The notes beneath the pieces are model-generated. The model saw nothing but the letters and a program-made list of their open reading frames with translations. It searched no databases and was not told the DNA's origin. A stretch of 64,000 bases of DNA from positions 33,617-97,616 of the forward strand of contig JAKAGT010000016.1 of assembly GCA_021825585.1 (NCBI GenBank). The letters run 5' to 3'. Below, in pieces: positions 31,698 to 54,096 of this stretch (positions are counted from its first letter, which is position 1; the number at the start of each line of letters is the position of its first letter). The position numbers and the translations under genes are program-made. The DNA is from Bacteroidota bacterium. Lineage in GTDB: Bacteria; Bacteroidota; Ignavibacteria; Kryptoniales; JAKASW01.

Positions 31698-31993
31698 AAC
31701 TCAGATTGTCCTTGTTCGTTTGCGGAAAATGTTGCGAACAATATCAACTGTGAATCTATTCTCTGGGGTAACTTCTGCAATGATTTCTTTGTAAGCCTGT
31801 CAGTGAAACGTACTCGACTCGACCAATTGCCATCGAAGCAAAAAATATAACCTAACTCGCTGAGAATCAAGATTTGATATGCTACGGTATGAATGTAACC
31901 TTGATACAAACAAACGCAATTATTAGGTTTTGTGGAATCGGATTTCAGCTTCGTATGCCTGATAACTGAGATTTGCAAAGGGAGGGAAGAGTT

Positions 31994-33235
31994 GTGAAGA
32001 CGAGTTTGCAGATTTTGTTCCTCGGTTTGGCTATTACGGTGGTGTCGTTCGATTACGGATGCAACTTGATGACCGGACCGGGCGACTCTCAAAAGAATTT
32101 GGATCTCACGACAACGGATAAAGTGGTAGCGTCCGCGAGCAGTTCTTTCGGGTTGAATCTCTTCGGAAACGTGGCGGCTCAAGAGGCGGGCAAGAACTTT
32201 TTCATTTCCCCGCTCAGCGTCTCGATGGCGCTCGCTATGACTCTCAACGGAGCCGCGGGTCAAACATACGCCGACATGCAGAAGACGCTCGGTCTCCAGG
32301 GACTCTCTAATGGGGAAATCGATAAATCGTATGAGGATTTAATCGCACAGTTTGCCGCGCTCGACCCCAGTGTGACGTTTCGGATCGCAAATTCAATCTG
32401 GTATAGAAACACCTTTCCAGTGATAGACTCGTTCCTGACGGTCAATTCCACATACTTTGATGCCGCTGTCAAGCCTCTCGATTTCAATGCTGCCGACGCC
32501 GCGGATGTAATCAATCAATGGGTGAGCGGGAAGACCGGCGGGAAAATTCCGTCGATAATTTCGCCTCCCATCGATCACACAGCCATGTTATACCTCATCA
32601 ACGCCCTATATTTTAACGGCATATGGATGTACGCCTTTGATCCGGCAAACACGGAGCCTCGACCGTTTCATTTGCTGGACAGCTCGGTGGTGAATGTGCC
32701 GACAATGGCCGTAGGCGACACCTTGAACTATTACTCGGATAATCTATTCCGGGTTGTGGAACTGCCTTATGGAAAAGGAGACTACAGCATGTTGGTACTT
32801 CTGCCGAAGCCAACTTTTGCGGCAGCTGAAGCCTCGTTGAACCAGAATGAAGTCGATGGAATCATCAATGGCCTTGCACCCAGAGATGTCAACGTCCTTC
32901 TGCCGAAGTTCAAGCTGACATATGAAACGAGTCTGATTCCAATTTTGAAGAAGATGGGAATGGGTATCGCATTTGGAGGCGGTGCTGACTTCTCTCGAAT
33001 CAACGCGAGCGTTCCGCTGGAAATAACTGAGGTCCTCCACAAAGCTTATGTCGATGTGAATGAGAAGGGCACCGAGGCTGCCGCTGTGACGGTCGTGGGA
33101 ATCGGATTAACCGCTGTAGAACCGGTGCCGATCAACTTCACTGTCGATAAGCCCTTTATCTTTCTTATAAAGGAAAACCATGACAACACGATTATGTTCA
33201 TGGGCGCCGTTGTCAATCCGACTTTGACAAGCTGA
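31994..33235 (+). CDS. serpin family protease inhibitor, secreted/possibly lipidated
   Basis: Serpin fold signatures, inhibitory-type hinge EKGTEAAAVT and C-terminal FMGAVVNP. The likely start is GTG 31994, 6 nt after GGAGGGA. The signal peptide ends in ...SFDYGC. Confidence 0.9.
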   Translation: MKTSLQILFLGLAITVVSFDYGCNLMTGPGDSQKNLDLTTTDKVVASASSSFGLNLFGNVAAQEAGKNFFISPLSVSMALAMTLNGAAGQTYADMQKTLGLQGLSNGEIDKSYEDLIAQFAALDPSVTFRIANSIWYRNTFPVIDSFLTVNSTYFDAAVKPLDFNAADAADVINQWVSGKTGGKIPSIISPPIDHTAMLYLINALYFNGIWMYAFDPANTEPRPFHLLDSSVVNVPTMAVGDTLNYYSDNLFRVVELPYGKGDYSMLVLLPKPTFAAAEASLNQNEVDGIINGLAPRDVNVLLPKFKLTYETSLIPILKKMGMGIAFGGGADFSRINASVPLEITEVLHKAYVDVNEKGTEAAAVTVVGIGLTAVEPVPINFTVDKPFIFLIKENHDNTIMFMGAVVNPTLTS

Positions 33236-38056: not shown

Positions 38057-41000
38057 ATGTCCTGTGCGAAGCGTCTCCTATCCATTTCAATCCTTATCGC
38101 CGCATCATGTGAAATTTTATTGCCTGCCCGTTCCTTCGGGCAGGTAAATTCATCATTAGAGTTTCAAGCATCCGATTCAGTTGTCGTCCGCATCTTCAGC
38201 GCGGATACACTCGTACATCTCCCCGACGAATTCGTAGTCCAGAACTCCGACCGGGTGGTTTGCGATTCCGTGGAATTGAAGCGGGGCCCGGACTACAGGA
38301 TCAACTACACTGCGGGCACGCTGAGGTTCGAACCAGGTGGGCCATTCTTCCGGAACCGCAGAGACTCGGTTTATGTCGTAAGTCTCTATTATGCCAGTTT
38401 CCCGTTTACGATGCCGACCGAATTTACCAATCACATAGTAATCGCGAAATATGATACTTCGTTCAAGAAGAAGGTAATGATGATCGAGCAGAGTGCTCCG
38501 ATCACGCCTGCAGAACTCTTCGGCAGCAACATCCAGAAAAGCGGGAGCATCGTGCGCGGTTTCACCATCGGATCCAACCAGGACCTGACACTCAACTCCG
38601 GTTTCCGGATGCAGCTTTCGGGACAGCTGACGAAGGACGTCCAGGTGACCGCGGCGCTGACGGACGAGTCGAGCCCGATCCAGCCCGAAGGAAATACGAG
38701 AACGCTCCAGGAGTTCGACAAGGTGTTCGTCACCATAAAATCCCCGCATATCATCGGCACACTCGGCGATTTCGACCTGACCGAAACCGGGACGGAATTC
38801 GGAGTCATAAACCGCAGGCTTCAGGGTGGAATGGGAACGGCGAACTATGGTCAGACATCCGTTATGATCAGCGGCGCCGTGAGCAGGGGGAAATTCCGAA
38901 CCCAGCAGATTGCGCCGATAGACGGCAGCCAGGGGCCTTACCAGCTTGTCGGGGACGATGGAAGTCCTAACATAATTGTGGTTGCGGGCACCGAGCATGT
39001 TTACCTCGACGGCGTTAAGATGGTTCGCGGCGAAACGAACGACTATGTTATAGACTATTCGAATGCTCAGATCACCTTCACTCCCAAACACCTCATTACT
39101 AACCTGAGCCGGATCTTCGTGGATTTCGAATATTCCGACGGGCAATTCCAGCGGACGTTTGCCGGGGGCGCGGCGAAGACGAAGGTGGCGAACAATAAGA
39201 TTGAGGTGGGTGTCTCTTACTTCCAGACGGGCGACGATCCTAACAGCTCACTCGGCGTGACGCTTGCGGATTCGGACAAGGCTCTCCTTGCAAAGGCCGG
39301 CAATAACAGGCTCGCTGCTTCGAGGAGCGGTGTGACCTACGTCGGACGCGACTCAATCACCGGGATCGGTAAGGGACAGTACCGTCTCGATTCGCTGATT
39401 GTCAACGGCAAGCCGTACTACATTTATAGGTTCGTACAGCCGACCGACACGAGTAACCTTGTAAATGCCGTCTACAACGTCGCCTTCTCAGAGGTAGGCA
39501 GCGGGGAGGGTGACTACCAGTCGGTCGGATTCGGTCAGTATAACTTTGTCGGTATTAATCAGGGATCCTACGCGCCGATCGTTGTCCTCCCGATGCCGCA
39601 GTTCCACCAGCTCGCGGATGTAAATACGAAATACCGGTTCAGCCGGGACGGTTCGGCGACACTCGAGTATGCAGCAAGCAGTTTCAACGCCAATACCCTC
39701 TCCTCGCTTCCCGGTGTCTCATCCAGCGGATACGCGGCCAAGTTCGGATTTGACTACTCTCCCAAGAACCTGAAGATCGGCGACATGGATGTCGGGGCTT
39801 TGAAGTTTGCGGAGATGACGAGGTACGAGAATGCCAATTTCGATCCGATGGACAGGGTCAACGACGTCGAGTTCAACAGGGAATGGGGAATAGACACACT
39901 TGTTGCCGCAGATGAGCTCCTGAACCAGGCACACCTGGATTTTACGCCGGCAATCAAGGAGGCCCGCCTGACGATAGGCGGAGATGTAGGGAGAATCACA
40001 CGAGGCTCCGGCTTCAGCTCCGGAAGATACTCCGGTGCAATTTCCTTCGGGGGAAATCCCGGAGCGAAAGGCGAGCCTGGCTGGATACCTTCCATCAATT
40101 ATCAGGCGACGCTCGTGGACAGCAGGGACAACGAGTTCTCAAATGCCGGGAGCTGGTTCAGGCAGAACGGCACGATCCAGTTTGCGGTATGGAAACTAAC
40201 CCCGGGGTTTCGATTCGAATCGGAAGACCGGCGTCTGGCTACGACCGGTACAGACTCCCTTTGGGCGAACTCGTATCGCTACCTCGAATACGGGCCGACA
40301 CTGGCCGTCGCGCAATTTTATAACGTCGACATCTCGGCACAGGTTTATGTGAGAAATGAGAGCGGCATCATCAACGGAGAACTCGTTCCATCATCCAATT
40401 CACTTACCGAACAGCTCACGATGCGGCTGAACCAGATCAGCAGCTTCTCTTCCAACCTGACATTAACGTACCGGAAGAAATCATACAGCGACAGTTTCAA
40501 GTCGCTCGGAAATTCGGACAATGAAGCGTTTCTGTCGAAGTGGGACGCCAACTACGCTCCGCTGAATCGCGGTCTCCAGGCAAACGTGTTTTATCAGGTC
40601 AATACCGAGCGTGCTGCAAGGCTCGAACAAATTTTCTGGAAGGTGCAGCCGGGCCAGGGTCAATACATCTGGATCGACGGAAATCATAACGGCCAGGTCG
40701 ACATTACGAATCCGCTCGATTTCCAGCAGGTCAACTTCAACGGCGACTACATTTTGCTGACAAGGCCGACCACGACGCTCTATCCGGTAATCGACCTGAA
40801 GACGAATTTCAGGATTGCCGTCACCCCGGAGAAGTTCATGGAGAAGAGCGGCGGGATAGTCAATGCAGTTCTGCGCTCCCTTTCATCGGTCACCTTCTGG
40901 CAAATCGCAGAGAATAACCAGACGACCAACGTCAGCAACATATATCTCCTTCATCTTTCGAAGTTTCTCAACGACAGCCTGACTATCAGCGGCAACCAGG

Positions 41001-41635
41001 TGCTCCAGCAGGATTTTTACGTCCTGCAGAACAACCGCGACTTTTCTCTCCGCCTGAGATTCCTGCAGAACAAGTCGCTGAACCAGTATTCGATAGCAAC
41101 GGAGCGCGGTTATACGCGCGAGCAGAGCATGAGGCTCAGGGCCAAGCTGTCCGATTTATTCTATGAGGAACTCGATCTGTCTTTGAACGACAACGATGTG
41201 TTCACCACATACACCGACCGTGCACACCAGATCAGCGGAAACAGTATCGCCTCGGAGCTCTCTTACCGTCCCAACATGAACGTGGAGTCTTCGTTCAAGA
41301 TAGAGATTTCGAAAGCGGTGGATGCTTCCCGGGCCGGCCTTACAAATTCCATGAATACGGAAGTGCTGAGTGTCGCTTATTCGATTCTGACGAGAGGCCG
41401 CGTCACGCTTCAGCTTGAACGGGACGAGATCTTGATTTCGAACGAGGAACCGAATGTCTATTTGCCGTTTGAATTGACACAGGGTTTTCTGCCCGGTCAG
41501 ACATACATTTGGCAGCTGGGTTTCGATTACAGGATAAACTCTTTCATACAGGCTAACGCAAGTTACAACGGGAGAAGCCAGGCAGGTGGGCCGCCAATCA
41601 ATACGATGACTGCGGAAGTAAGGGCATTCTTCTAG
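38057..41635 (+). CDS. large predicted outer-membrane beta-barrel protein, unknown function (possibly distantly SprA-like)
   Basis: 1192 aa with a signal peptide (LLSISILIAASCEILLPARSFGQ), alternating beta-strand-like composition rich in Y/G/N/S, and a C-terminal ...AEVRAFF typical of OMP termini. Repeated DY.I.Y..G.I.F motifs. No family was assigned with confidence. Confidence 0.8.
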   Translation: MSCAKRLLSISILIAASCEILLPARSFGQVNSSLEFQASDSVVVRIFSADTLVHLPDEFVVQNSDRVVCDSVELKRGPDYRINYTAGTLRFEPGGPFFRNRRDSVYVVSLYYASFPFTMPTEFTNHIVIAKYDTSFKKKVMMIEQSAPITPAELFGSNIQKSGSIVRGFTIGSNQDLTLNSGFRMQLSGQLTKDVQVTAALTDESSPIQPEGNTRTLQEFDKVFVTIKSPHIIGTLGDFDLTETGTEFGVINRRLQGGMGTANYGQTSVMISGAVSRGKFRTQQIAPIDGSQGPYQLVGDDGSPNIIVVAGTEHVYLDGVKMVRGETNDYVIDYSNAQITFTPKHLITNLSRIFVDFEYSDGQFQRTFAGGAAKTKVANNKIEVGVSYFQTGDDPNSSLGVTLADSDKALLAKAGNNRLAASRSGVTYVGRDSITGIGKGQYRLDSLIVNGKPYYIYRFVQPTDTSNLVNAVYNVAFSEVGSGEGDYQSVGFGQYNFVGINQGSYAPIVVLPMPQFHQLADVNTKYRFSRDGSATLEYAASSFNANTLSSLPGVSSSGYAAKFGFDYSPKNLKIGDMDVGALKFAEMTRYENANFDPMDRVNDVEFNREWGIDTLVAADELLNQAHLDFTPAIKEARLTIGGDVGRITRGSGFSSGRYSGAISFGGNPGAKGEPGWIPSINYQATLVDSRDNEFSNAGSWFRQNGTIQFAVWKLTPGFRFESEDRRLATTGTDSLWANSYRYLEYGPTLAVAQFYNVDISAQVYVRNESGIINGELVPSSNSLTEQLTMRLNQISSFSSNLTLTYRKKSYSDSFKSLGNSDNEAFLSKWDANYAPLNRGLQANVFYQVNTERAARLEQIFWKVQPGQGQYIWIDGNHNGQVDITNPLDFQQVNFNGDYILLTRPTTTLYPVIDLKTNFRIAVTPEKFMEKSGGIVNAVLRSLSSVTFWQIAENNQTTNVSNIYLLHLSKFLNDSLTISGNQVLQQDFYVLQNNRDFSLRLRFLQNKSLNQYSIATERGYTREQSMRLRAKLSDLFYEELDLSLNDNDVFTTYTDRAHQISGNSIASELSYRPNMNVESSFKIEISKAVDASRAGLTNSMNTEVLSVAYSILTRGRVTLQLERDEILISNEEPNVYLPFELTQGFLPGQTYIWQLGFDYRINSFIQANASYNGRSQAGGPPINTMTAEVRAFF

Positions 41636-43216: not shown

Positions 43217-44500
43217 TCAGGTCGGGTTCTGCGGGAGCGCTTTCAATGCCCAGTGGATCTTCGCCAACAGTTCCTCGGCCAGGTACGGCTTTGGCATGAA
43301 GTCTATCGCCCCGACCTCATAGGCCTGGGCCTTCACTTCCGGCTGAACGTAACCGCTGGCGGAAATTACCCTCACACGCGGATTTAGAATCATGAGCTTC
43401 GCAAGAACTTCACTCCCGCTCATTTTGGGAAGTCCCATGTCGAGGAGCACGAGGTCGATTCTGCTCAGATGTTCCATGTAGATGCGAAGGCCCTCTGACC
43501 CATCCGATGCCAGCAAGACTTTGTACCCGCTTTCCTCGAGAATTGTTTTCAGAAAATCCCTTAGAGGCTCTTCGTCCTCAATGGCAAGAATCACTTCGCC
43601 GGCGCCTCCTGGTGCCTCGGCTGTTTTATCTTCTTCCGACAACACCCCTGTTGTCTGAGGAAGGACCGGGAAATAAAGGGAAAATGCTGTACCCGTACCG
43701 ACTCTGCTTTCAACGCCCACGAATCCATTGTGGGCTTTCATAATCCAATCGACGACCGACAGCCCAAGGCCGGTGCCGTGCCCGTCCCTCTTTGTCGTGA
43801 AGAACGGCTCAAAAATATGCCCCAGCGCCTCCTTCTTTATTCCTGAACCTGAATCCGACACTTCAATTTGTACGTATCGGTCCGCTTCCGCTCCCCGAAA
43901 ACGAGCGTCGATGACCCCCCGTCCGACGCACTTAGCGGTGATTTCGATTGTTCCCGCGTCCGGCATTGCATCGCGGGCGTTCAAGCAAAGATTGAGCAGG
44001 GCTTGGTGAATCCGATTCGAGTCAGCCCGGATTACAGGGATGTCGGAATCGATCTGAATGCTGAAGCGGATCTTCTCGGGAAAGATCTCCTTCAGCAGCC
44101 CCGTGAGTTCTTCAATTACCTCGCCTATTTTGACACGCTCCGTTACGACCTCGACTTTCCGCGTGAACGTGAGAAGTTGCCTGGCAGTCTGAGCCCCGCG
44201 GTCAGTTGCCTTCTTCACGGCGTCGAAGCTCTTTGCAAACCGCTCCGGGTCTTCCCTCCACCTTTCCATGAGTGAGACGTGCCCGGAGATAACGTTCAGT
44301 ATGTTGTTGAAGTCGTGGGCGATTCCACCGACGAGCGTGCCCAGCGTCTCCAGCCTTTGCGACTGAAGGACATGGTCTTCCCAGCGTCGCGGACCTGTTT
44401 CATTTGTCGCGAGTCTCCCTTTTGAGAGGGCAAGGTCCGGGCGATCGAACTTCCCGATCTGATTTTCTTCCATGAATGTCTTCTTTCCTTTTCGGCACAT
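43217..44500 (-). CDS. hybrid sensor histidine kinase/response regulator lacking a recognisable sensor domain
   Basis: 427 aa with HisKA (GGIAHDFNNIL), HATPase_c (GTGLGLS) and a C-terminal REC (LLDMGLPKMSG). Only about 60 aa precede the H-box, and an in-frame stop lies 21 nt upstream of the first ATG. Confidence 0.85.
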   Translation of the reverse strand: MCRKGKKTFMEENQIGKFDRPDLALSKGRLATNETGPRRWEDHVLQSQRLETLGTLVGGIAHDFNNILNVISGHVSLMERWREDPERFAKSFDAVKKATDRGAQTARQLLTFTRKVEVVTERVKIGEVIEELTGLLKEIFPEKIRFSIQIDSDIPVIRADSNRIHQALLNLCLNARDAMPDAGTIEITAKCVGRGVIDARFRGAEADRYVQIEVSDSGSGIKKEALGHIFEPFFTTKRDGHGTGLGLSVVDWIMKAHNGFVGVESRVGTGTAFSLYFPVLPQTTGVLSEEDKTAEAPGGAGEVILAIEDEEPLRDFLKTILEESGYKVLLASDGSEGLRIYMEHLSRIDLVLLDMGLPKMSGSEVLAKLMILNPRVRVISASGYVQPEVKAQAYEVGAIDFMPKPYLAEELLAKIHWALKALPQNPT

Positions 44501-44990
44501 ACATCCTGCCTTCTGCGTTATTCAATCGCTTCCTATCACCGACAGGCTCCATCAGTCCTTGCGGGTACTTAACGCCGCAGGCGACCTGGATGCCTTTGTG
44601 TCCTCTTGTCCATATCCGATACCGACACTGACGGCAAAGCAGCCTTCGTCGTGATCGCACTCAAAGAGCAGTACTTCAATGACCTTATCATGACTTCGGC
44701 GGGATCCGAAGCCGCGAATCCGACGATGACTCAGCCCTCGTGCTGACGATGAAGCTATGGAGCTGATATTGAAATGTAGGTGCCACAAAAACCGGCCCCG
44801 CTCTGCCAGAGCTGTCCCGGCCGCCGGATCAAGCCGGCGTACGAGAAAAACCAGCCTCGTCAAAATGCAAACTCCTCTTTCCCGGAACGTTGAGTGTGAC
44901 TGCACTCGCCTGGGCAGGCTCTGGCTCGCGTTCTTGTAAACCAACAAGTTTGAACTCGCAACCGATATTACAGATTGCTCGTTCGGTGAT

Positions 44991-45098
44991 TCAGTCTGGT
45001 ACGCAAAGCAATGCGTTGCAGCCGAGGCAGTTTGTTCCTGGTTGCTGCTCGGTTTCGGGTTGCTGTACCTGTACCTTAGGGGCTACTACTACCTTCAT
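44991..45098 (-). CDS. candidate RiPP precursor peptide (35 aa, 3 Cys), unannotated sORF
   Basis: ATG 45098 is preceded by AAAGGAGGTG with a 6-nt spacer, 74 nt downstream of the rSAM/SPASM stop on the same strand. Translation: MKVVVAPKVQVQQPETEQQPGTNCLGCNALLCVPD, stop TGA 44993..44991. It is below the ORF-track length cut-off. Confidence 0.5.
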   Translation of the reverse strand: MKVVVAPKVQVQQPETEQQPGTNCLGCNALLCVPD

Positions 45099-45172
45099 CT
45101 GGTTCACCTCCTTTCCTTTTCTTTTATGTTTAGCATCCAATTAGTATCTCAAAATTGCCTTAAGGAGAGAGT

Positions 45173-46504
45173 CTAGTTTGTCCCCTCTTGTTGGGCGTTT
45201 TCTACGAACATCTTGATATCCTCTTTGTAAGGAGGGCAGACGGGATGGTTGGGAGTTCCATTTTCCCTCAATCTTAAAACTTCATTTTTGGGACAATGAG
45301 CGGAATTACATATCGGCAATACGGCACAACGGCGGCACTGTGGATACTTTTCGATGCTCGATTCGACCCAGAGGCTGAAGTTCTTTACGTCGAGATGGAT
45401 TGTCCCTTCAGCAGTAAGATGGCCCACCAGGTTTTCCGGCATCTCAAAAGCCGATGTGCACTTGTAAATCGAACCGTCTGGCCCTATGACGAGCGAATGT
45501 GGGTCTGCGGCGTAGCACATTCCCAGGGCAGGGTTCAAAAAGAGGTCGCTGTCATAAAGGTACAACCCGACTTCGCCGCATATGTCTACTATTTGCTTTC
45601 TAAGACTTCTGGTCTCGAAATTGGTAAGCAAATCAAACTGGCTCTTTCCCCACGTGGGTCTCACATAAAATCGCGCCCTCTTGTCGTCGCCGACGATATC
45701 CTTGACGATGCGGGCAAACTCCGGAACGGTCTTAAGGTTATCCCTGTCGACATTCATCCTCACGACGTACATGACTTCCGGATGGTCGGATTTTGCGATG
45801 TATCGCAGGTTGGAGATAACCTGGTCGAATGTCGGTCCCCCGGATTCGAGGATCCGGCGCTGATTGTGAAATTCTCTCGGACCGTCAATTGTAATCTGGT
45901 AGCGGAGTAATCGCCAATCCTTGACTGCCTCTTCGAACACCTCCGGCGTCAGGAGATAGCCGTTTGTTGTAATCGTCGCATTAAATGCGGCGTTATATTT
46001 GTCTGCCTCTCTGACTGCATGTTTTGAGATGTTTCTGATAACGTCAATCCCGAGAAGCGGTTCACCCCCGAACCATTCGATGGAAAATCCATTTACCCGT
46101 CCCATATTATTGGAGATGTAATCCTTCAATGCCTTCTGGATTTCCTCACTCATCTTCGGCTTCTGAAAGCTCTCGTAGCAGTACACGCACCGGAAATTAC
46201 ACTCTTCCGTCGGCATCACTATCAGGCTTACTCTGTCGGTGCTCTTCTGCCTCGCGTTGAACGAAGCGATGTAGTCGGGAATCTCGTTTGTATCTTCAGG
46301 GATTATGAACATTGCGTCTTTCAGTACCGGGAACCACTCATGATCGCTGAGTTGGAATGTCTCATGCCTCCAGGCCTCCTCAAATCCCGGAAATAAAGGA
46401 TCCGTGTTGGACAGCTCGACAATAGCCCCGGTCCTTGCGTTGAAGAGACGTGCGCCGTCTTCGGTCTTTACCGTTACATTGTAACGGCTCTTCTTATAGT
46501 TCAT
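45173..46504 (-). CDS. radical SAM/SPASM domain peptide-maturase-like enzyme
   Basis: CNFRCVYC (Cx3Cx2C) about 95 aa from the N-terminus. C-terminal SPASM pattern: CYAADPHSLVIGPDGSIYKC ... CRRCAVLPICNSAHC ... HPVC. The likely start is ATG 46504 (GGAGAG 5 nt upstream); the ORF track uses GTG 46519. Confidence 0.9.
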   Translation of the reverse strand: MNYKKSRYNVTVKTEDGARLFNARTGAIVELSNTDPLFPGFEEAWRHETFQLSDHEWFPVLKDAMFIIPEDTNEIPDYIASFNARQKSTDRVSLIVMPTEECNFRCVYCYESFQKPKMSEEIQKALKDYISNNMGRVNGFSIEWFGGEPLLGIDVIRNISKHAVREADKYNAAFNATITTNGYLLTPEVFEEAVKDWRLLRYQITIDGPREFHNQRRILESGGPTFDQVISNLRYIAKSDHPEVMYVVRMNVDRDNLKTVPEFARIVKDIVGDDKRARFYVRPTWGKSQFDLLTNFETRSLRKQIVDICGEVGLYLYDSDLFLNPALGMCYAADPHSLVIGPDGSIYKCTSAFEMPENLVGHLTAEGTIHLDVKNFSLWVESSIEKYPQCRRCAVLPICNSAHCPKNEVLRLRENGTPNHPVCPPYKEDIKMFVENAQQEGTN

Positions 46505-46537
46505 GGTCACTCTCCACACTTGTTAGTCACCTTGAAT

Positions 46538-46556
46538 AGTACTAATACCGTGCCGG
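46538..46556 (-). promoter_or_regulatory. sigma-54-like -24/-12 element upstream of the rSAM gene
   Basis: Minus strand cCGGCAC-GGTAT-TAGTac has correct GGCAC-N5 spacing but a weak -12 (TAGT versus TTGC). It lies 36 nt upstream of the ATG and downstream of an activator gene and palindromes. Confidence 0.35.
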
Positions 46557-46597
46557 GAAGGAGGCCCCGTAATTGAGTTATTTGCGGGGAATGGGTA

Positions 46598-46625
46598 TGG
46601 ATTTTCCAGAATTCTGGAAAATCCA
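46598..46625. promoter_or_regulatory. 28-bp perfect palindrome, candidate enhancer (UAS) for a sigma-54 activator
   Basis: TGGATTTTCCAGAATTCTGGAAAATCCA equals its own reverse complement. It sits about 60 bp upstream of the -24-like element. Confidence 0.5.
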
Positions 46626-46637
46626 GGCCTTTGCTTT

Positions 46638-46656
46638 CCAGATTTCCGGAATCTGG
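46638..46656. promoter_or_regulatory. second related inverted repeat
   Basis: CCAGATTTCCGGAATCTGG (CCAGA...TCTGG arms around a TTCCGGAA core) shares the TTCCAGA half-site with the 28-bp palindrome. A further TTCCAGG lies at 46658..46664. Confidence 0.4.
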
Positions 46657-46841
46657 CTTCCAGGAGCGAGTAGTTTTGCGGGGCGGGCAAGCTGCCGAAG
46701 TCAGGCTTCTAAGAACGGCCGGGTGTGATCCTTGTGGGGAGACATGAGTTATTGTTGGCGTCGGATGCGATCGGAATAAGAGATAACATGCTGCCTGAAC
46801 GGCAACACACGCTCCCAACGATTCATTCCGTACAGGAAAAC

Positions 46842-47960
46842 CTACTCATCAACCGAAGCCGGCGATTTCAGCTTGGATATTTTTCCGGCGACCAATTCGT
46901 ATACAGTACTCTTTGAAGTCCCCAGTGACTTGGCCACCGACTTGTAGTTACCGGAACAAACAGTCAATGCGGCCTCAACGAGATTCTCCTTGAAGCATCT
47001 TTCTTTTTCCCTGAGGTTGAGATTCTCACCGCGTAATATTCCGCAGTTCATGGCGTCAAACTTCCCCTCCGGCAAATGACTGACGTCCACCAGGTCTTCG
47101 TTCTCGTCGAGCACCGCTATTGTGTATTCAACGACGTTTTTCAATTCCCTTATGTTGCCTGGCCAGCTGTAGCAGGAGAATATCTCCATCACTTCCGGGG
47201 AGACCACGACTCCTTCACGGCCATTGGCATCAAGGAAATATCTGACAAGGGCGGGAATTTCATCTATCCGTTCTCGCAGCGGCGGGATGGTCAGTTCACA
47301 GGCGTGGATTCTATGGTACAAATCTACTCTGAAGGTTTTGTTCTTGACCATTTGAGCGATATCCTCGCCGGTTGCGCCCACCAGTCTGAAATTGACTTTC
47401 CTGGGTGCGACGGAGCCGACCGGATAAAACTCCTGATATTCCAGCGCTCGCAGCAATTTCTTCTGGACCGCCAGGCTCATTTCCGCCACCTCGTCGAGGA
47501 AGAGAGTACCGCCGTCTGCGATTTCAAAGAAGCCCGTCTTATCGCCGCGCGCATCTGTGAAGGCTCCCTTCACGTATCCGAAGAGCTCACTTTCCAGCAG
47601 GTTATCGGGAATCGCCGCGCAGTTTATTGCCACGAAGCTTCCCGTCGAGTTTCTCGGCGAATTCTCATGTACATACCTTGCCAGGATCTCCTTCCCACTT
47701 CCGGTTTCGCCCGTAATCAGCATTGGTAAGTCAGATTTGGAAAGCTTTCTGGCCCTGTCATAAATCCTCTTCATGGCGTCATTTCGCATCACCGGGAGAG
47801 CTAGAGCAATGATGGCGGCGTTCGACGCCAGCCAATGCGCGCCATGAGAGAATGTCGGAATCAAATGACTCGCCGCACTGCAGAGAATGCCTGACAGGAC
47901 ACTCGCCTTTAGGGCGAAAACAATTGTTATGGCTGACATATCCATGATGTTCCTTTTCAT
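46842..47960 (-). CDS. sigma-54-dependent transcriptional activator without receiver domain
   Basis: 372 aa with an AAA+ sigma-54 interaction domain (ITGETGSGKE, ESELFGYVKGAFTDA, GTLFLDEV) and a C-terminal Fis-type HTH. The N-terminal ~55 aa are hydrophobic instead of REC/GAF/PAS. The ATGA overlap with the permease stop indicates co-transcription. Confidence 0.9.
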   Translation of the reverse strand: MKRNIMDMSAITIVFALKASVLSGILCSAASHLIPTFSHGAHWLASNAAIIALALPVMRNDAMKRIYDRARKLSKSDLPMLITGETGSGKEILARYVHENSPRNSTGSFVAINCAAIPDNLLESELFGYVKGAFTDARGDKTGFFEIADGGTLFLDEVAEMSLAVQKKLLRALEYQEFYPVGSVAPRKVNFRLVGATGEDIAQMVKNKTFRVDLYHRIHACELTIPPLRERIDEIPALVRYFLDANGREGVVVSPEVMEIFSCYSWPGNIRELKNVVEYTIAVLDENEDLVDVSHLPEGKFDAMNCGILRGENLNLREKERCFKENLVEAALTVCSGNYKSVAKSLGTSKSTVYELVAGKISKLKSPASVDE

Positions 47961-50377
47961 TCATATCTAAGGGCATTCACCGGGTTTGAAACACCTGCCT
48001 TAATCGCCTGAAAGCTCAATGTGAGCATGGCGGTCAAAAAGACAATCAAACCCGAAATGATGAACACCCATACGTTAATGGTGATCTTGTATTCGAATTT
48101 CTGAAGCCACTTGTTCATGAAGAAGTATGCCGTCGGCCATGCAACGGCTCCCGCAATTGCAACGAGCTTGATCGACTCCTTGGACAACATCAGAACTATG
48201 CTTAACACCGAAGCGCCAAGAACTTTTCTAACACCTATTTCCTTTATCCGTTGTTCGCTCGTGTATAGAGTGAGCCCGAAGAGACCCAGGCAAGCCACCA
48301 GGAGTGCCACCGAAGAGAAGAGTGCAAGGAGGTGCTCGTTCTTGACCTCATTGCCATACTGACTGTCCAGGTAGCTGCCAAGGAAGCCATAATCGAAGGG
48401 CTGGCGCGGCATCAGGTTATTCCAGGTCTTCGACACGAAATCGACGGTCGACCCTATGTCCTTAGGAGCGACTCTTACAACAAGGTACTGGCATTTGTCA
48501 GGTCTCAGCCACATGACGAGAGGATCGATCTTGTTTTGCAGAGAGAAGTAATTGAAGTCTCTCACAACGCCAACCACGGAGAAAATCTGTCCGTTTCCCA
48601 ATTGAATCTTTTTCCCCACAGGACTGCTCCAGCCAAGCGTTCTTCTCATTGTCTCGTTGATAATCACGGACGATGAGTCTGATGGGAATTGCATAGAGAA
48701 ATCCCTTCCTTCGACGATCTTCATGCCCATTGTCCTGATATAGCCGTAGTCAATGTAGCTCTCCCTCACTATCAAACGGGACTGACCGTTCGTCTCAGGC
48801 ACTAACACGGTTCCTTGTGTGGAAGCGGAACCGGTCAACTCGCCAGCCGACACGGCTAGAACTTTAGGGTTTGTAAGGAGTCTTTCACTAATCAACGGGA
48901 TCTTGCTTCTGGAATCTGCATTTCGCAGCGGAATGTATACTATGTTTTTCTTGTCGAACCCTAATGGCTTGCTGTAGACATAATTCATCTGATCGACCAC
49001 GATGCTTGTCCCGGTAACGAGCCCCATGGCTATGCTGAATTGCAGCATTATCAACGCTTTCCTGAGGATTATCCCGCGCTTGCTGGACGAAAATCTTCCC
49101 CTGAGCAAATCGACCGGGCGAAACGAGGAGAGATAAAACGCGGGATAGATTCCTGCAATGAAGCCCACAACGACCGCTATCAGGGCAAGCATTAGGAGGA
49201 ACGGCCACTGATTATTGTAAGAGACGATTATCCGGTCGTCCATCATTGAGTTAAACGAGGGAAGGAGAGCCTCGACAATGGGAAGGGAAATGAGGAAGCC
49301 ACTGAAGGAAAGCAAAATAGATTCTCCGATGAACTGATAAATAAGGTGCGAGTGGAACGATCCTAGCAGTTTGCGGATTCCCACTTCTCGAGTCCTTATC
49401 CCAGAGCGGGCTGTTGTAAGATTGATGAAGTTTATACACGCAAGGACAATCACGAACAACGCTATCATGATGAAAAGCCTGACGTGCTCGATGTTCCCCT
49501 TGTCATAATTAACCTGATAAAGTATGCGGCCTGAATGAAGGTGGATGCTTATGAGAGGCTGCAAATACATCTTCAAACCGTTCCAGACGTTCTGTGGTAG
49601 ATTGGCTTTGAGAAACGCCGGGAGTTCCCTTTGAACCACGCCGGAAGACCGGCTGTCCTTCAGGAGAACATAAGTGACCACATCGTTGGTTGCCCATCCC
49701 TTGAAGAGATCCAGATGACTTTCGAGTGCACCCAGTGAAGCAATCATATGAAAATGCAAATGAGAGTTTCGCGGAAAATCCTTAACTACTCCAGTGACCT
49801 GAAATGCCTTCTGGGAAAGATCCGCGTCGATATCTATGAATTTCCCCAGAGGATCGATGTTCCCGAAGTATTTTCTCGCCGTCGACTGATCGATCACTAC
49901 ACTGTAAGGTCCATTGAACGCCGCGGAGGCGCTCCCTTCGACGAAGTGGAACGTGAAAATGTCGAAGATGCTCGAATCGGCGAAGGTCAGCCCGTCTTCG
50001 TAAAACCTCCTTTCTCCAAAGTGACACAGGACGGTTGGCCATGGAACAAATCTGGCTGCGTCCTCCACTTCCGGGAATTCTTTCTTCAAGGCCGGTGCCA
50101 GCTCAGGCATCGTGATGGCCACCTGCTGTACGCGAGCGCCCGGCGGGTTCTGAATCTCCACGACCCGGTATATCCGATCGGCCTTCTTATTGAACGTGTC
50201 GTAGTTGAACTCGTTAAGAACAAACAGCATTATAAGCGTGAAGAGCGTGAAGCCTATTGTGAGGCCTGCAATGTTTATGAAGGAGTAAACCTTGGAGCTT
50301 GAGATACTTCTGAGAACGGTTTTAACGTAGCTCCAGAACACCCCGTGTCCCTTCCGTAATATTCTCGTTGGCCACAT
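47957..50377 (-). CDS. MacB/FtsX-type ABC transporter permease (duplicated FtsX)
   Basis: 806 aa with the typical N-terminus (...YSFINIAGLTIGF), two FtsX 4-TM modules and two large extracytoplasmic domains. The start may be GTG 50341 rather than ATG 50377. Confidence 0.9.
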   Translation of the reverse strand: MWPTRILRKGHGVFWSYVKTVLRSISSSKVYSFINIAGLTIGFTLFTLIMLFVLNEFNYDTFNKKADRIYRVVEIQNPPGARVQQVAITMPELAPALKKEFPEVEDAARFVPWPTVLCHFGERRFYEDGLTFADSSIFDIFTFHFVEGSASAAFNGPYSVVIDQSTARKYFGNIDPLGKFIDIDADLSQKAFQVTGVVKDFPRNSHLHFHMIASLGALESHLDLFKGWATNDVVTYVLLKDSRSSGVVQRELPAFLKANLPQNVWNGLKMYLQPLISIHLHSGRILYQVNYDKGNIEHVRLFIMIALFVIVLACINFINLTTARSGIRTREVGIRKLLGSFHSHLIYQFIGESILLSFSGFLISLPIVEALLPSFNSMMDDRIIVSYNNQWPFLLMLALIAVVVGFIAGIYPAFYLSSFRPVDLLRGRFSSSKRGIILRKALIMLQFSIAMGLVTGTSIVVDQMNYVYSKPLGFDKKNIVYIPLRNADSRSKIPLISERLLTNPKVLAVSAGELTGSASTQGTVLVPETNGQSRLIVRESYIDYGYIRTMGMKIVEGRDFSMQFPSDSSSVIINETMRRTLGWSSPVGKKIQLGNGQIFSVVGVVRDFNYFSLQNKIDPLVMWLRPDKCQYLVVRVAPKDIGSTVDFVSKTWNNLMPRQPFDYGFLGSYLDSQYGNEVKNEHLLALFSSVALLVACLGLFGLTLYTSEQRIKEIGVRKVLGASVLSIVLMLSKESIKLVAIAGAVAWPTAYFFMNKWLQKFEYKITINVWVFIISGLIVFLTAMLTLSFQAIKAGVSNPVNALRYE

Positions 50378-51026
50378 GACCGTCGAACAGCTGAACTATC
50401 CTGTTTGCCCAGCTCGCGTATTCGGTCGAGTGTGTGACCATAACGACGGTAGCACCGCCCTCATTTAATCGTGCAAGCAGAGTCATCACTTCATCCCCGT
50501 TTCTGGAGTCGAGATTCCCGGTAGGTTCATCCGCGAGTATCAACTTCTGTTTACCCACTATTGCTCTGGCGACGGCCGCTCGTTGCTGCTGTCCTCCCGA
50601 CAACTGCTTCGGAAAGTGATTGCGCCTCGGGGTGAGACGCATCTTCTCCATAATGTCCATCACCATTTCTTTCCGCTCGGGAGAACCAATTCCCATATAT
50701 ATAAGCGGCAGCTCAATATTCTCGTAGACCGTCAATTCGTTTATCAGGTTGAAATTCTGAAACACGAAGCCGATGTATTTTCTTCGGAGCGCGGTACGCT
50801 GTTTCTCTGAGAACCTGGACACCTCCTGTCCGAGGAAGTAATGTTCCCCCTCAGTAGGGCTATCGAGAAGGCCAAGTATTGTAAGCAAAGTTGTCTTGCC
50901 GGATCCGGACGGCCCCATAATTGCAACAAACTCACCGGGATCGATACGCAAGTTCGCATTGGCGACTGCAACTGTCTCGACCTGATCGGTCCTGTAAACT
51001 TTCTTGAGATTACTGATTCGAATCAT
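50322..51026 (-). CDS. ABC transporter ATP-binding protein (MacB/LolD-like)
   Basis: 234 aa with Walker A GPSGSGKTT, signature LSGGQQQR and Walker B LILADEPTGNLD. Confidence 0.9.
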   Translation of the reverse strand: MIRISNLKKVYRTDQVETVAVANANLRIDPGEFVAIMGPSGSGKTTLLTILGLLDSPTEGEHYFLGQEVSRFSEKQRTALRRKYIGFVFQNFNLINELTVYENIELPLIYMGIGSPERKEMVMDIMEKMRLTPRRNHFPKQLSGGQQQRAAVARAIVGKQKLILADEPTGNLDSRNGDEVMTLLARLNEGGATVVMVTHSTEYASWANRIVQLFDGHVANENITEGTRGVLELR

Positions 51027-51064
51027 TTTCCGGGTCCTTTTTGGCTAAATAGCCCTTGAAAAAG

Positions 51065-51082
51065 CGTCAAAAATTGTGCCTT
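51065..51082 (-). promoter_or_regulatory. sigma-54-like -24/-12 element upstream of the ABC operon
   Basis: Minus strand aAGGCAC-AATTT-TTGAcg has correct spacing and a -12 of TTGA versus TTGC. It lies 40 nt upstream of the ATPase ATG, in the divergent region shared with the NtrC-type regulator gene. Confidence 0.4.
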
Positions 51083-51276
51083 ATTTTATGACACCAGTAG
51101 CATCCAGATACACGCACGCCGACTTAAAGTGTTCGCTTTCGATACACCGAGTGTGCGGATATGATACAGAGTCCGACTTAATCTGTCAGGAAAAAAGGAA
51201 ATGCAGCGGCGCGACCTTACTATGCCATGAGACGATCGGGGTTCGCATTATCAAGAAGGGATTATTAGATTTGTCC

Positions 51277-52659
51277 ATGACTTCAAATCCTGAAAAACAC
51301 GGCAGCGCTCTGATCGTCGATGACGATGCTGCTATCCTCACAGCGTTTAGTCTCCTTCTCAAGCCGCACCTTAGGCTGGTGGAAACCGAAAGAGATCCTC
51401 ATAATATAGAAAAACGGCTCAAAACAATATCACACGATGTAATTTTCCTGGATATGAACTTCGCCAAGGGATCGACGACGGGCGAAGAAGGATTCCTATG
51501 GCTCAACAGGATTCTCAAAATTGATCCCACGGCCATCGTGATTTTGATCACCGCCTACGGCGACATAGAAACAGCGGTGAGGGCCATCAAGGAAGGTGCG
51601 ACGGACTTCGTCGTGAAGCCGTGGCAAAACGAAAAGATCCTGGCGACTCTCTCGTCGGCCTTGAAGTTGAGGGAGTCTCAGGTAGAACTCGCGGCATCGC
51701 GTAATCGCGAGAAAGTACTCAGTGCCGATCTCGATCAGCCGTTCCATGAAATAATCGGCAAGTCAACAGCAATGCTTCAAATATTTGAAACGATACGGAA
51801 AGTAGCGGGAACGGAAGCGAATATTCTGATTCTGGGTGAAAACGGTACGGGTAAGGAGCTGGTGGCGCGTGCGATACATCGTTTCTCAATGAGAGCCGAA
51901 AGTTCTTTTATTGCCGTCGACATGGGGGCAATAAGCGAGACTTTGTTTGAAAGCGAACTCTTCGGCCATGAAAAGGGGGCCTTCACCGGCGCCTCAAATG
52001 ATCGAATGGGGAGATTTGAAATCGCATCCAGGGGTACGCTTTTCCTCGATGAGATAGGAAATCTCCCGTTCTCACTTCAGGCCAAATTGCTCGCCGTAGT
52101 CGAGAGACGCGAGATCACGAGGGTCGGTTCCGATAGGCCGCGTCCGATCGATATTAGACTCATAACAGCCACGAACATGCCGATACATGAAATGGTGGCG
52201 CAGAAGAAGTTCAGAGAGGATTTATTATACAGGATAAACACCGTCGAGATAAATCTTCCTCCTCTGAGTCATCGGGTGGAAGATATCCCGCTGCTGGTCG
52301 AACATTTCGTACAACTTTACGGCAGGAAGTACCAGAAGCCGGGCATCCGTGTGTCTCCAGAAAGTATGAGGGTCTTGAGCGAATACCAGTGGCCCGGCAA
52401 TGTCAGGGAGCTGCAGCACGTCATAGAACGAGCGGTGATATTGAGCGAATCCGACTCCCTGCATCCCGAGGAGATGATTCTCAAACCGGCTGCAGCTGCG
52501 CACCCGGATAATGCGGCTGATCATTCGCTCGACGAAATCGAGAAGAAACACGTTGAGATGATGATCAAGAAACACGATGGAAACGTTACCGAAGCGGCAA
52601 AGGAACTCGGCCTGACACGGACTGCCCTCTACAGGAGAATCAAGAAATACGGAATATGA
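51277..52659 (+). CDS. NtrC-family sigma-54-dependent response regulator
   Basis: REC (LIVDDDAAIL...FLDMNF), AAA+ (GENGTGKE, ESELFGHEKGAFTGA) and Fis HTH domains. The conserved protein begins at MTSNPEKHGSALIVDDD. The ORF-track start 51076 would overlap the divergent promoter region. Confidence 0.9.
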   Translation: MTSNPEKHGSALIVDDDAAILTAFSLLLKPHLRLVETERDPHNIEKRLKTISHDVIFLDMNFAKGSTTGEEGFLWLNRILKIDPTAIVILITAYGDIETAVRAIKEGATDFVVKPWQNEKILATLSSALKLRESQVELAASRNREKVLSADLDQPFHEIIGKSTAMLQIFETIRKVAGTEANILILGENGTGKELVARAIHRFSMRAESSFIAVDMGAISETLFESELFGHEKGAFTGASNDRMGRFEIASRGTLFLDEIGNLPFSLQAKLLAVVERREITRVGSDRPRPIDIRLITATNMPIHEMVAQKKFREDLLYRINTVEINLPPLSHRVEDIPLLVEHFVQLYGRKYQKPGIRVSPESMRVLSEYQWPGNVRELQHVIERAVILSESDSLHPEEMILKPAAAAHPDNAADHSLDEIEKKHVEMMIKKHDGNVTEAAKELGLTRTALYRRIKKYGI

Positions 52660-52740
52660 ACGAATCGCCGCACGCCGCAGAACGCCCGTCGTTAAGATCA
52701 TCTTCCTATCTGTGCTAATGCATAACGGAAGAACGTCGCT

Positions 52741-54096
52741 ATGACTCTTGACCGCTTCCGCCTGGCCAGTGTTTCGCGTACGTTATTGTTAACTGCGACC
52801 GTATCGCTGCTCGCCTACCTTCTCTTTCGCACCGTCCTGTACGAGATGGCTGCGCTCGTTGGCTTAATTGCGTTGTACCAGCTGTTCTCCTTCATTCGCT
52901 GGATAGAGAGAAAAAATATCAGGTTGGCCAGATTCCTGGAAGCCATTGAGGCCGCCGATTTCACGCAGACTTTCAGCAATAACACAAGGAGCAAAGCCTT
53001 CGATGAACTGAACAGAAGCCTGAACAGGATCGCCCAGAGATTCGAGGAGATGAGAGTCGAAACAGAGGATCAGTTCCAATATCTGCAGTTCGTCGTCGAA
53101 CAGCTAACCGTCGGTCTGATCGCCTTCCGTCAGGACGGGAAGATTGATATGATAAACCGTGCCGCCAAACGCTTACTCGGCGTGCCGCAGCTCAAGAACG
53201 TCAAAGACCTCAGGCCCCTCAGCAACGACTTGTACGAGGTACTCATCAGCGCCAACCCACGTAAGAGGAACCTCGTGAGCATGGAGAGCGGTAATGTATC
53301 GGTAAGGCTTGCCATACAGATCTCCGGATTCAGGATGAGAGAGGTGAGCTACACTCTTGCATCGCTGCAGGACATGCGGGGTGAACTGGAAGAGATAGAA
53401 CTCGACGCCTGGCAGAATCTGATACGCGTATTGACGCACGAGATTGTCAACTCCATCGCTCCGATAGCATCACTGGCCTCAACCGCAAACAGACTCCTGT
53501 CCGACACGAGCTGGCAGTCGCCGGAGAAAGGAGAGGCTGCCCCGCCTGCTCTTGAGGACGTCCAGACCGCTGTGCGGACTATCGAGGCCAGGAGCGAAGG
53601 GCTGCTCCGTTTTGTCAATTCCTACAGGACCCTTACACATATTCCGAATCCGAAGTTCAGGATCTTCCCGATCTGGATGCTGTTTTCCCGGGTCGAACAA
53701 CTCGTCAGGTCGGCAGTAACCCAGAGCGGCATAACACTGACTACCAGCGTTACCCCTCAGTCGTTGGAACTGACGGCAGACCCGGACCTGCTGGAGCAAG
53801 TGCTTCTAAACCTTCTGATGAATTCAATTCAGGCTCTCGATGGCAAGACAGGCGGGCAGATTATCCTGTCGGCTCAGCTCGAGGAAAAGGGAAAGATAAG
53901 TATACGCGTTGAGGACAACGGCTTGGGGATTCCCAAAGATATTCAGGAAAAAATCTTCATTCCATTTTTTACGACAAAGGAGAGCGGCTCCGGGATCGGG
54001 CTCAGCCTCTCTCGCCAGATACTGCATTCACACCAGGCACTGATCAGCGTGTGGTCGCATCCGGACGAGAAGACGGTATTTACAATAGTCTTTTGA
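52741..54096 (+). CDS. sensor histidine kinase with two TM helices and almost no periplasmic loop
   Basis: 451 aa. TM1 and TM2 are separated by about 6 residues (RTVLYE). These are followed by a linker, a PAS-like segment, an H-box (LTHEIVNSIAPI) and HATPase_c (DNGLGIP...GSGIGLSLS). Confidence 0.85.
   Translation: MTLDRFRLASVSRTLLLTATVSLLAYLLFRTVLYEMAALVGLIALYQLFSFIRWIERKNIRLARFLEAIEAADFTQTFSNNTRSKAFDELNRSLNRIAQRFEEMRVETEDQFQYLQFVVEQLTVGLIAFRQDGKIDMINRAAKRLLGVPQLKNVKDLRPLSNDLYEVLISANPRKRNLVSMESGNVSVRLAIQISGFRMREVSYTLASLQDMRGELEEIELDAWQNLIRVLTHEIVNSIAPIASLASTANRLLSDTSWQSPEKGEAAPPALEDVQTAVRTIEARSEGLLRFVNSYRTLTHIPNPKFRIFPIWMLFSRVEQLVRSAVTQSGITLTTSVTPQSLELTADPDLLEQVLLNLLMNSIQALDGKTGGQIILSAQLEEKGKISIRVEDNGLGIPKDIQEKIFIPFFTTKESGSGIGLSLSRQILHSHQALISVWSHPDEKTVFTIVF

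Follow-up and report, generated by a model that had tools for sequence, protein, structure and literature searches.

How is a locus that encodes a radical SAM enzyme and a short cysteine-containing peptide switched on, when two different activators of sigma-54-dependent transcription are encoded right beside it? The locus in question lies at positions 44991-54096 of a 64-kb stretch of a Bacteroidota contig from an uncultivated, Kryptoniota-like bacterium (JAKAGT010000016.1; the whole 64,000-nucleotide stretch is hereafter called the window), whose genes were listed from open reading frames (ORFs) and then by Pfam and NCBIfam profile scans. It consists of a response regulator and a sensor kinase, divergent from an ATP-binding cassette (ABC) ATPase, an FtsX-type permease and a second, receiver-less activator (hereafter the orphan activator), which are followed by a radical SAM/SPASM maturase and a precursor peptide. 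A preliminary description had proposed a two-tier sigma-54 cascade, and this hierarchical reading is also the one we favour, at a probability of about 0.58. In the first tier, the membrane kinase would phosphorylate the NtrC-type regulator, which would bind TGTATC-N5-CGnACA dyads (51130-51168) and activate a sigma-54 promoter (51081-51066) driving the ATPase, the permease and, on the same transcript, the orphan activator. In the second tier, the orphan activator would bind TTCC-N8-GGAA dyads (46604-46651) and activate a second sigma-54 promoter (46555-46540), from which the maturase and its three-cysteine precursor would be expressed, the operon ending at a hairpin followed by a T-run. Since the orphan activator has no input domain, its level would be set mainly by the first tier, and such serial wiring would mean that the transporter appears no later than the modified peptide; it would also add a delay and a threshold. 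This architecture is well supported by sequence comparison, because each operon has its own conserved sites and the regulator can be tied to the ABC promoter, while the binder of the TTCC sites was reached by elimination. All the elements of the preliminary description are present in the sequence (ORFs, Pfam and NCBIfam matches, motif positions), with one correction: it had placed the kinase first in the divergent pair, whereas the regulator (51277-52659) precedes the kinase (52741-54096), the start at 51277 being right.

Taken by themselves, the two promoter-like sites speak against the cascade. Measured by the sigma-54 consensus TGGCAC-N5-TTGCW, which was used in a mismatch scan and a weighted-matrix scan of the window, each has three mismatches and lacks the C of the -12 GC (TTGA and TAGT, respectively, at the ABC and radical SAM promoters). 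The scan allowing two mismatches returned 24 hits against 22.7 expected, and in the weighted scan many sites within genes scored equally, which leaves both promoters at background level. Because background hits score alike, scans of this kind are uninformative, and phylogenetic footprinting was therefore used. Orthologous loci were gathered through the radical SAM protein, and alignments were made of the last 170 nt ahead of the radical SAM gene (11 distinct loci, with radical SAM identities of 64-92%) and of the ABC upstream region (eight loci). The putative sigma-54-type promoter of the radical SAM-peptide operon (CGGCACGGTATTAGTA, 46540-46555, minus strand) has the GG at -24 and a -12 GC degenerated to GT. 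Its counterpart, GGCAy-N5-TTnGnA, is found at -48 to -51 from the radical SAM ATG in all 11 orthologous loci, and in seven of them a proper GC is present at -12 in the same register (TTGGCA or TTCGCA), so that the copy in the window is best read as a degenerate version of a conserved element. Further upstream, two 16-bp TTCC-N8-GGAA dyads, 32 bp apart (46604-46651), have their centres ~59 and ~91 bp from the promoter GG and recur as TTCC-N8-GGA(A) at -147 and -115 from the ATG, again in 11/11 orthologues. The invariant blocks of this upstream region are the promoter, the two dyads and the ribosome-binding site; the sequence between them has diverged until it cannot be aligned. A comparable arrangement precedes the ABC-FtsX-activator operon. 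Its putative promoter (AGGCACAATTTTTGAC, 51066-51081, minus strand) has the GG at -24 and TTGA rather than TTGC at -12, and corresponds to a GGCAy-N5-TTTG element at -54 to -63 from the ABC ATG in 8/8 orthologues; the -12 C is kept in just one of these eight, a real weakness of the cascade. Upstream lie two tandem 17-bp dyads, TGTATC-N5-CG(C/A)ACA, 22 bp apart (51130-51168, minus strand; centres ~65 and ~87 bp from the promoter GG). In the alignment they read TGTATC..A..CG.ACAC followed, 22 bp on, by a slightly weaker copy, and both are kept in 8/8 loci. Each pair of dyads is unique in the window and was reproduced in none of 100 shuffles. Both pairs lie at a distance suited to the activator sites of sigma-54 promoters, which are placed about 80-150 bp from the start site.

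It is conservation, in other words, that lifts both putative promoters and both dyad pairs above chance. The palindromes ahead of the radical SAM promoter, which the preliminary description had pointed out, stand in full, while its sigma-54-like promoters, although conserved in 8/8 and 11/11 loci, do not rise above chance on the sequence of the window considered alone. A sceptic might still regard the -24/-12-like motifs as accidents, or as parts of other elements, and have the operons transcribed from housekeeping promoters of the Bacteroidetes type. The three mismatches, the absence of a -12 GC in the window and the equal scores at background frequency would fit such a view, as would a TTTG resembling the Bacteroidetes -33 element inside the ABC element. 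It is nevertheless very improbable, since the GGCA and TTG blocks keep their positions in 11/11 and 8/8 loci whose flanks have diverged, a -12 GC is present in 7/11 radical SAM promoters, and the eight-locus alignment reveals no conserved -7 box downstream of the ABC element. Moreover, conserved dyad pairs lie ~60-90 bp upstream of the elements, genes for sigma-54 activators are adjacent, and near-perfect sigma-54 promoters occur in related loci.

The two types of dyad never cross over (in none of the loci does either type occur at the promoter of the other), and distinct, non-crossing site types imply two different activators. Which of the two proteins binds which sites can be judged from loci where one of them is missing. 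A metagenome scan with the permease alignment returned 80 loci, mostly tandem arrays of paralogous permeases. In four of these (L079, L083, L089 and L090 in our numbering of loci) a homologous kinase/regulator pair lies beside transporter genes, with both the radical SAM gene and the orphan activator missing; the module is present twice in L083, and the features given here are those of the second copy. The regulators of these independent modules are 47-62% identical to that of the window; their helix-turn-helix (HTH) hardly differs from that of the window in L079 and L090 (AAKELGLTRTALYRR type), with greater divergence in L083 and L089. In all four, the intergenic region next to the regulator gene has a pair of TGT-N10/11-ACA dyads spaced 21-24 bp, after which comes a sigma-54-like promoter (TGGCACGTTCCATGCA in L079, GGCATATAGTTGG in L083, TGGCACGCTCTTTTCA in L089 and TGGCACGAAATTCC in L090), which in L079 reads TGGCACG-N4-ATGCA and in the other modules is a weaker variant. 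Because TGT...ACA dyads accompany homologous regulators where there is no orphan activator, they are assigned to the response regulator, of which they are the predicted sites. The TTCC-N8-GGAA pairs are found exclusively where the orphan activator is present and, by elimination and adjacency, are predicted to be its targets. The wiring might in principle be reversed, with the regulator acting on the radical SAM operon through the TTCC dyads and the orphan activator autoactivating its own operon through the TGT...ACA dyads: both proteins have an HTH, both promoters need an activator and both assignments are predictions. That arrangement is hardly credible in view of the TGT-N10/11-ACA pairs and sigma-54 promoters standing beside homologous regulators in loci that lack the orphan activator, with a conserved recognition helix (clearly so in L079 and L090), and of the restriction of TTCC-N8-GGAA pairs to loci that have it.

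The orphan activator (46842-47960, minus strand) is a bona fide bacterial enhancer-binding protein by domain, motifs and fold. Pfam recognizes Sigma54_activat and AAA_lid only, the PF00158 match covering residues 59-223 (E = 4.8e-63), with the AAA+ domain beginning at residue 59 and with Walker A and B motifs reading GETGSGKE and LFLDE. The C-terminal part can be aligned with the regulator's HTH_8 (SGNYKSVAKSLGTSKSTVYELV) and forms three helices in the AlphaFold model (residues 316-363); Pfam gave no HTH_8 match at E <= 0.01. The AAA+ core of the model is confident, residues 1-56 have a predicted local distance difference test score (pLDDT) below 50, and the top structural matches in the PDB are NtrX, FlrC, LuxO, NtrC1, FleQ and PspF. 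Pfam and NCBIfam scans found no domain N-terminal of residue 59, and alignment and the AlphaFold model agree with them, so the earlier statement that this protein lacks a receiver or sensory domain holds. Orthologues have ~20-56 poorly conserved residues ahead of the AAA+ domain, one subclade having just ~20. In the subclade of the window this N-terminal tail is hydrophobic (up to 1.9 in a 19-residue window over residues 8-31, a borderline membrane helix); the other subclade lacks the tail. The sigma-54 contact loop is GAFTDA, not GAFTGA, in all orthologues. GAFTDA has been listed among the natural variants held to retain activation, with DVU2106 of Desulfovibrio as the example (PMC4641369), while in VfmH the effect of a G-to-D change in the loop is not established (PMC10714721). 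The idea that GAFTDA might be a shared derived mark of radical SAM-linked activators (L010, a more distant radical SAM locus, has YAFTDA) was rejected, because the same loop occurs in unrelated module regulators, namely in all five of the independent modules beside sigma-54-like promoters. A second clade of receiver-less activators, ~50% identical and with GAFTGA, was seen at L025:10001-12223 and L026:10001-12220; a 330-aa protein without a Pfam domain is always the next gene there, and a promoter-like GGTATA-N4-TTTG site is conserved in the intergenic region.

If the orphan activator is to relay the first tier to the second, its gene has to be expressed with the transporter. In the window its ATG overlaps the permease stop codon, as had been described (ATGA, 47957-47960). 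An alternative ATG at 47945, 15 nt downstream and preceded by AAGGAA, was taken by gene callers as the start of an identical database protein; with either ATG the gene begins no more than 12 nt from the permease stop, and with such overlap or abutment a promoter could not be fitted between the genes. Six loci share the overlap (the window, L013, L016, L001, L027 and L028), and in the window the activator is likely to be co-transcribed with the transporter genes, judging from gene spacing.

A different view would have two modules working in parallel, the activator being expressed from its own, possibly constitutive, promoter and gated post-translationally by a partner, while the two-component system controls the transporter alone. 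The partner could be the hybrid kinase-receiver encoded downstream, some other anti-activator or the variable N-terminal tail itself. Several facts sit well with this: both modules are found apart elsewhere; the tail of 20-56 aa is variable and, in the subclade of the window, hydrophobic; and a gene for a soluble hybrid kinase-receiver always comes next downstream. In six orthologues (L012, L011, L005, L007, L015 and L003), moreover, the permease and activator genes are 14-238 nt apart, with GAGGTGA as a strong ribosome-binding site, which makes a separate activator promoter possible there. Against it stand the ATGA overlap in the window and five other loci, which leaves no space for a promoter, the absence of any conserved promoter-like element or terminator within the gaps of the six gapped loci, and the same-strand ABC-FtsX-activator order, which is invariant wherever a contig reaches both genes. 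For activators without an input domain, separate transcription and gating by a partner have both been put forward as options, the known examples being in need of partners (PMC4641369). Taken together, these points make the parallel arrangement rather unlikely, and in the cascade that we prefer to it the orphan activator is assumed to be active simply when made.

That assumption heads a short list of further points that weigh against the cascade. PspF is restrained by PspA and HrpS by HrpV, activators without an input domain being normally held by partner proteins. The assignment of the TTCC dyads has adjacency and elimination as its whole basis, and the paralogous receiver-less clade (L025, L026) proved uninformative as a guide to these dyads, since both its HTH and its upstream sites differ. 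No conserved terminator was found between the activator gene and the radical SAM operon, so that read-through into the latter is possible. A Pfam scan of the 64-kb window found no rpoN there. Finally, the right-hand flank of the locus (a BON protein, a 1170-aa protein, TIM and GatB) is syntenic within the clade as well; the order of genes in the clade consequently says little about function and may reflect relatedness.

This last point matters for how the joint occurrence of the two blocks is read. The order of the divergent regulator/kinase pair, ABC, FtsX, activator, radical SAM and peptide genes is kept in every locus of the orthologous clade, over the part of the block that each contig covers. 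Outside the clade the picture changes. In L010, where the radical SAM protein is 51% identical, a GAF-AAA+-HTH activator is encoded directly upstream, together with a perfect TGGCACGAGGATTGCA and a Cys-rich MKIV... peptide, and no transporter is present within its short contig. Three TGCCC-N4-8-GGGCA palindromes precede TGGCACGAGGATTGCA in this locus (L010:2245-2590) and represent a third type of activator site for the radical SAM/peptide family. L009 (45% identity) has an XRE-type regulator only. In L021 and L023 (31-33% identity; from Elusimicrobia and an unclassified metagenome-assembled genome), a divergent receiver-type activator is found, with an ABC-2 transporter downstream and TGGCAT-N5-TTGAT ahead of the radical SAM gene. 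L079, L083, L089 and L090 show the converse, a two-component system and transporter module without a radical SAM gene. The comparative check of co-occurrence that the preliminary description had suggested is thus answered both ways: the blocks are always fused in the orthologous clade, and they are separate in L010, L009, L021, L023, L079, L083, L089 and L090. Two conclusions can be drawn: this radical SAM/peptide superfamily comes under sigma-54 control repeatedly, and the arrangement in the window is a lineage-specific fusion of two modules found apart in distant relatives. It seems that a peptide cassette which elsewhere has a GAF- or receiver-type activator has here lost the input domain of that activator and been set under a pre-existing two-component/transporter module.

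What the transporter does is a separate matter. The ATPase (50322-51026, minus strand; Pfam ABC_tran) is of the MacB/LolD/DarD type, its top NCBIfam match being DarD (269 bits, under the cut-off of 375 bits), with the MacB and LolD models matched too. The permease (47957-50377, minus strand) is duplicated and ADOP-like, with two MacB-like periplasmic core domains (Pfam MacB_PCD and FtsX, twice each, in agreement with the transmembrane profile), and scores 280 bits, under the cut-off, with the NCBIfam ADOP model. FtsX and a MacB-like core in the permease, together with a MacB/LolD-type ATPase, place the pair in the MacB/FtsX (type VII) class. Neither the ORF list nor Pfam shows a gene for an adaptor (membrane-fusion protein) or an outer-membrane channel within the block. 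Permeases homologous to that of the window elsewhere form tandem arrays with as many as six or seven paralogues (L029-L103; e.g. L037, L042, L051, L094 and L099), often with one ABC ATPase gene at one end. The accompanying kinase (52741-54096, plus strand; Pfam HATPase_c and PAS_8), second gene of its pair, has by hydropathy two neighbouring transmembrane helices (~14-34 and ~37-55) with hardly any external loop, followed by a cytoplasmic PAS domain, the H-box and the HATPase domain. The kinases of the independent modules have the same two-helix, no-loop N-terminus, and in L079 and L090 the transporter operon starts with an adaptor-like gene. From its gene content, this stand-alone module of kinase, NtrC-type regulator and (adaptor)-ABC-FtsX transporter might be regarded as the sigma-54 equivalent of Bce-type modules, and we know of no description of it. 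BceRS-BceAB of Firmicutes, which serves to sense and detoxify peptide antibiotics, likewise combines a near-loopless kinase of two transmembrane helices with an adjacent ABC transporter that the two-component system induces and whose FtsX permease has large extracytoplasmic domains. It is OmpR-type and sigma-70-dependent, whereas the system of the window is NtrC-type and sigma-54-type, with a cytoplasmic PAS domain in the kinase and a duplicated, MacB-like permease; what fits is the kinase topology and the gene linkage.

A role of the transporter as peptide exporter or in immunity, which the preliminary description had assumed, is unproven, and the wide distribution of the kinase/regulator/transporter module without a peptide locus bears on it. 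The cascade could be real and the transporter still a general envelope or antimicrobial efflux module, into which the peptide cassette was plugged for its regulatory input. Besides the many modules that have no radical SAM or peptide gene, with or without an adaptor, this is suggested by the large tandem arrays in which the permease family occurs, by the precursor having no signal peptide and by the lack of an adaptor and an outer-membrane channel in the block, MacB-type pumps working from the periplasm and normally with both. On the other side, DarBCD of darobactin provides a precedent for an FtsX-type exporter in a radical SAM operon for a ribosomally synthesized peptide with post-translational modifications (RiPP), the ATPase of the window scores highest with DarD, and a dedicated role would fit the linkage, which does not vary within the clade. 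A general efflux function is in our opinion a real possibility, albeit on balance a doubtful one. Even more tentative, and unlikely, is an extension of the cascade in which the circuit is autoinducing: the transporter and the loop-less kinase would serve to detect the exported modified peptide, whereupon the regulator would raise the levels of transporter and orphan activator, and the latter would fire the peptide operon. This would include the co-option in this lineage, as the tier for sensing and self-protection, of a widespread sigma-54 module that may be a Bce-like envelope- or peptide-stress unit in FCB-type bacteria. The NisRK system of lantibiotic autoinduction is comparable in that a two-component system tied to a RiPP cluster controls biosynthesis as well as transport and immunity genes. 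NisRK has a single tier and is sigma-70-dependent and OmpR-type, and sensing of the mature peptide is here a hypothesis.

The output of the proposed cascade is an operon of two genes. The maturase (45173-46504, minus strand) matches Pfam Radical_SAM (PF04055) and Fer4_12 (PF13353), and its cysteines, read directly, include CNFRCVYC (CxxxCxxC) and, in the C-terminal auxiliary-cluster region, CX13GX4C and CRRCAVLPICNSAHC. TIGR04463 is the highest-scoring NCBIfam model, with 201.8 bits against a cut-off of 525; Clo7bot, CefB and PapB-type models score under their cut-offs as well, which points to a distinct family. Twenty orthologues share 45-94% identity with it, and the next matches fall to 36%. 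The precursor gene (44994-45098, or from 44991 with the stop codon; minus strand) has a strong ribosome-binding site (AAGGAGGTGA) and encodes a 35-aa peptide without a signal peptide (MKVVVAPKVQVQQPETEQQPGTNCLGCNALLCVPD) of a three-cysteine family, MK[VI][VI]VAPKV...PGxNCxxCNxxxCxP[DE], that is kept in 10 loci. With its radical SAM core, its auxiliary-cluster cysteines and a neighbouring gene for a conserved, short, Cys-containing peptide, the enzyme has the features that define a radical SAM/SPASM RiPP maturase with its precursor. A hairpin followed by a T-run ~190 nt past the peptide gene (44785-44820, minus strand; kept in the window, L013 and L016) is the probable terminator. Directly past the precursor gene, a long-range stem of ~15 bp around ~100 nt was also noticed (~44800-44935 in the window, minus strand). 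It is present in L013, L016, L001, L014, L005, L007 and L011 too, with one pair exchanged between AU and GC in three loci, and its 3' arm doubles as the 5' arm of the terminator in the window, L013 and L016, so that attenuation or stabilization of the transcript is conceivable. Rfam has no family over the region, the conserved stem included.

The regulator (51277-52659, plus strand; Pfam Response_reg, Sigma54_activat and HTH_8) has, by domain alignment, the REC-AAA+-HTH_8 architecture that defines the NtrC family, with a GAFTGA loop and a kinase encoded by the next gene. Its start is ATG 51277, from which orthologues share the N-terminus MxSxxEKxGS, and a long GTG-started ORF (51076-52659) was for this reason rejected. 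All orthologues have an invariant GGATTATTAGATTT ahead of this codon (51258-51279 in the window); within it, TAGATTTG fits TAnnTTTG, the -7 box of Bacteroidetes-type promoters, and is just a few bases away from the ATG, a position that would point to the two-component genes having a housekeeping transcript with almost no leader.

By synteny, the gene that comes next downstream of the peptide operon in every orthologous locus encodes a soluble hybrid histidine kinase-receiver without a sensor domain (43217-44500, minus strand; Pfam HisKA, HATPase_c and Response_reg), which may not belong to the circuit. A third sigma-54-like site ahead of it (TGGCACCTACATTTCA, 44770-44785), with a single mismatch, was dropped as it is not conserved in orthologues. 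A 131-aa ORF (44552-44947) was likewise rejected as a gene, having no family match and no conservation at the protein level. In orthologues a 78-116-aa ORF precedes the hybrid kinase gene; it was not counted as a gene, since its third codon positions are not enriched in substitutions and it has no Pfam match. Eight orthologues have the motif SSFCKYxDxxIxRIEFE in this ORF block (L013:11746-12096, L005:11736-11972, L007/L011:11738-11974 and L012:11689-11943), most of which the window has lost (~44520-44700). The block may be coding or a regulatory element. The remainder of the window is ordinary chromosome, with genes for tRNA synthetases, RelA/SpoT, GatB, TIM and a glycosidase sorted by the type IX secretion system, and the nearest relatives in databases are metagenome-assembled genomes labelled Candidatus Kryptoniota or Bacteroidetes. 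It also encodes a bacterial serpin (PF00079, E = 5e-110; 31973-33235) and a 1192-aa protein (38057-41635) that lacks Pfam domains, begins with a signal-like segment and shows 70-91% identity in all related genomes.

How does the proposed cascade compare with known systems? The parts are all of known kinds and sigma-54 activator cascades are textbook material; for peptide loci of this sort the wiring is not known to have been described, and no publication tying sigma-54 or enhancer-binding proteins to RiPP or radical SAM-peptide loci was found in the open-access subset of the literature that was searched, which is weak evidence of absence. In nitrogen fixation by Klebsiella, NtrB/NtrC activates the sigma-54 promoter of the operon encoding NifA, which in turn activates further sigma-54 promoters. 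The two-tier logic, including a second activator with upstream sites of its own, is the same. NifA, however, is under the control of NifL and possesses a GAF input domain, whereas the second activator of the window lacks an input domain, lies at the end of a transporter operon and would act on a peptide-modifying enzyme and its substrate rather than on nitrogenase. Flagellar hierarchies (FlrA to FlrBC in Vibrio, FleQ to FleSR in Pseudomonas) and Myxococcus cascades likewise have one sigma-54 activator controlling another. The flagellar order is the opposite, with an input-poor master activator on top and a two-component system below, and the outputs are unrelated. PspF and HrpR/HrpS share with the orphan activator an AAA+ plus HTH architecture without an N-terminal regulatory domain; the protein of the window differs in its GAFTDA loop and in its non-conserved tail of 20-56 aa, and no PspA- or HrpV-like partner was identified here. 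On the side of the product, the darobactin operon (darABCDE) and the ranthipeptides, sactipeptides and SCIFF also combine a radical SAM/SPASM maturase, a short precursor in which Cys residues are conserved and an FtsX-type ABC transporter. In comparison with the darobactin operon and with radical SAM/SPASM RiPPs in general, the precursor follows the enzyme gene here, and there is no membrane-fusion protein.

If the cascade is correct, expression of an activator without an input domain, together with sigma-54, should suffice to turn on the radical SAM/peptide operon. In uncultivated phyla, RiPP clusters usually stay silent or are difficult to express, and the activator suggests a practical route to the product. 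The comparison also provides two new activator-site motifs for regulon prediction, TTCC-N8-GGAA and TGTryC-N5-CGnACA, and defines a recurrent sigma-54-controlled FtsX-transporter module in bacteria of the FCB group. Should the autoinducing version prove true, it would be a quorum-sensing-like relay with positive feedback made entirely of sigma-54 parts, and the first RiPP system to depend on sigma-54. The fusion of two modules illustrates how regulatory hierarchies may arise, and as such it would extend known biology while overturning none of it.

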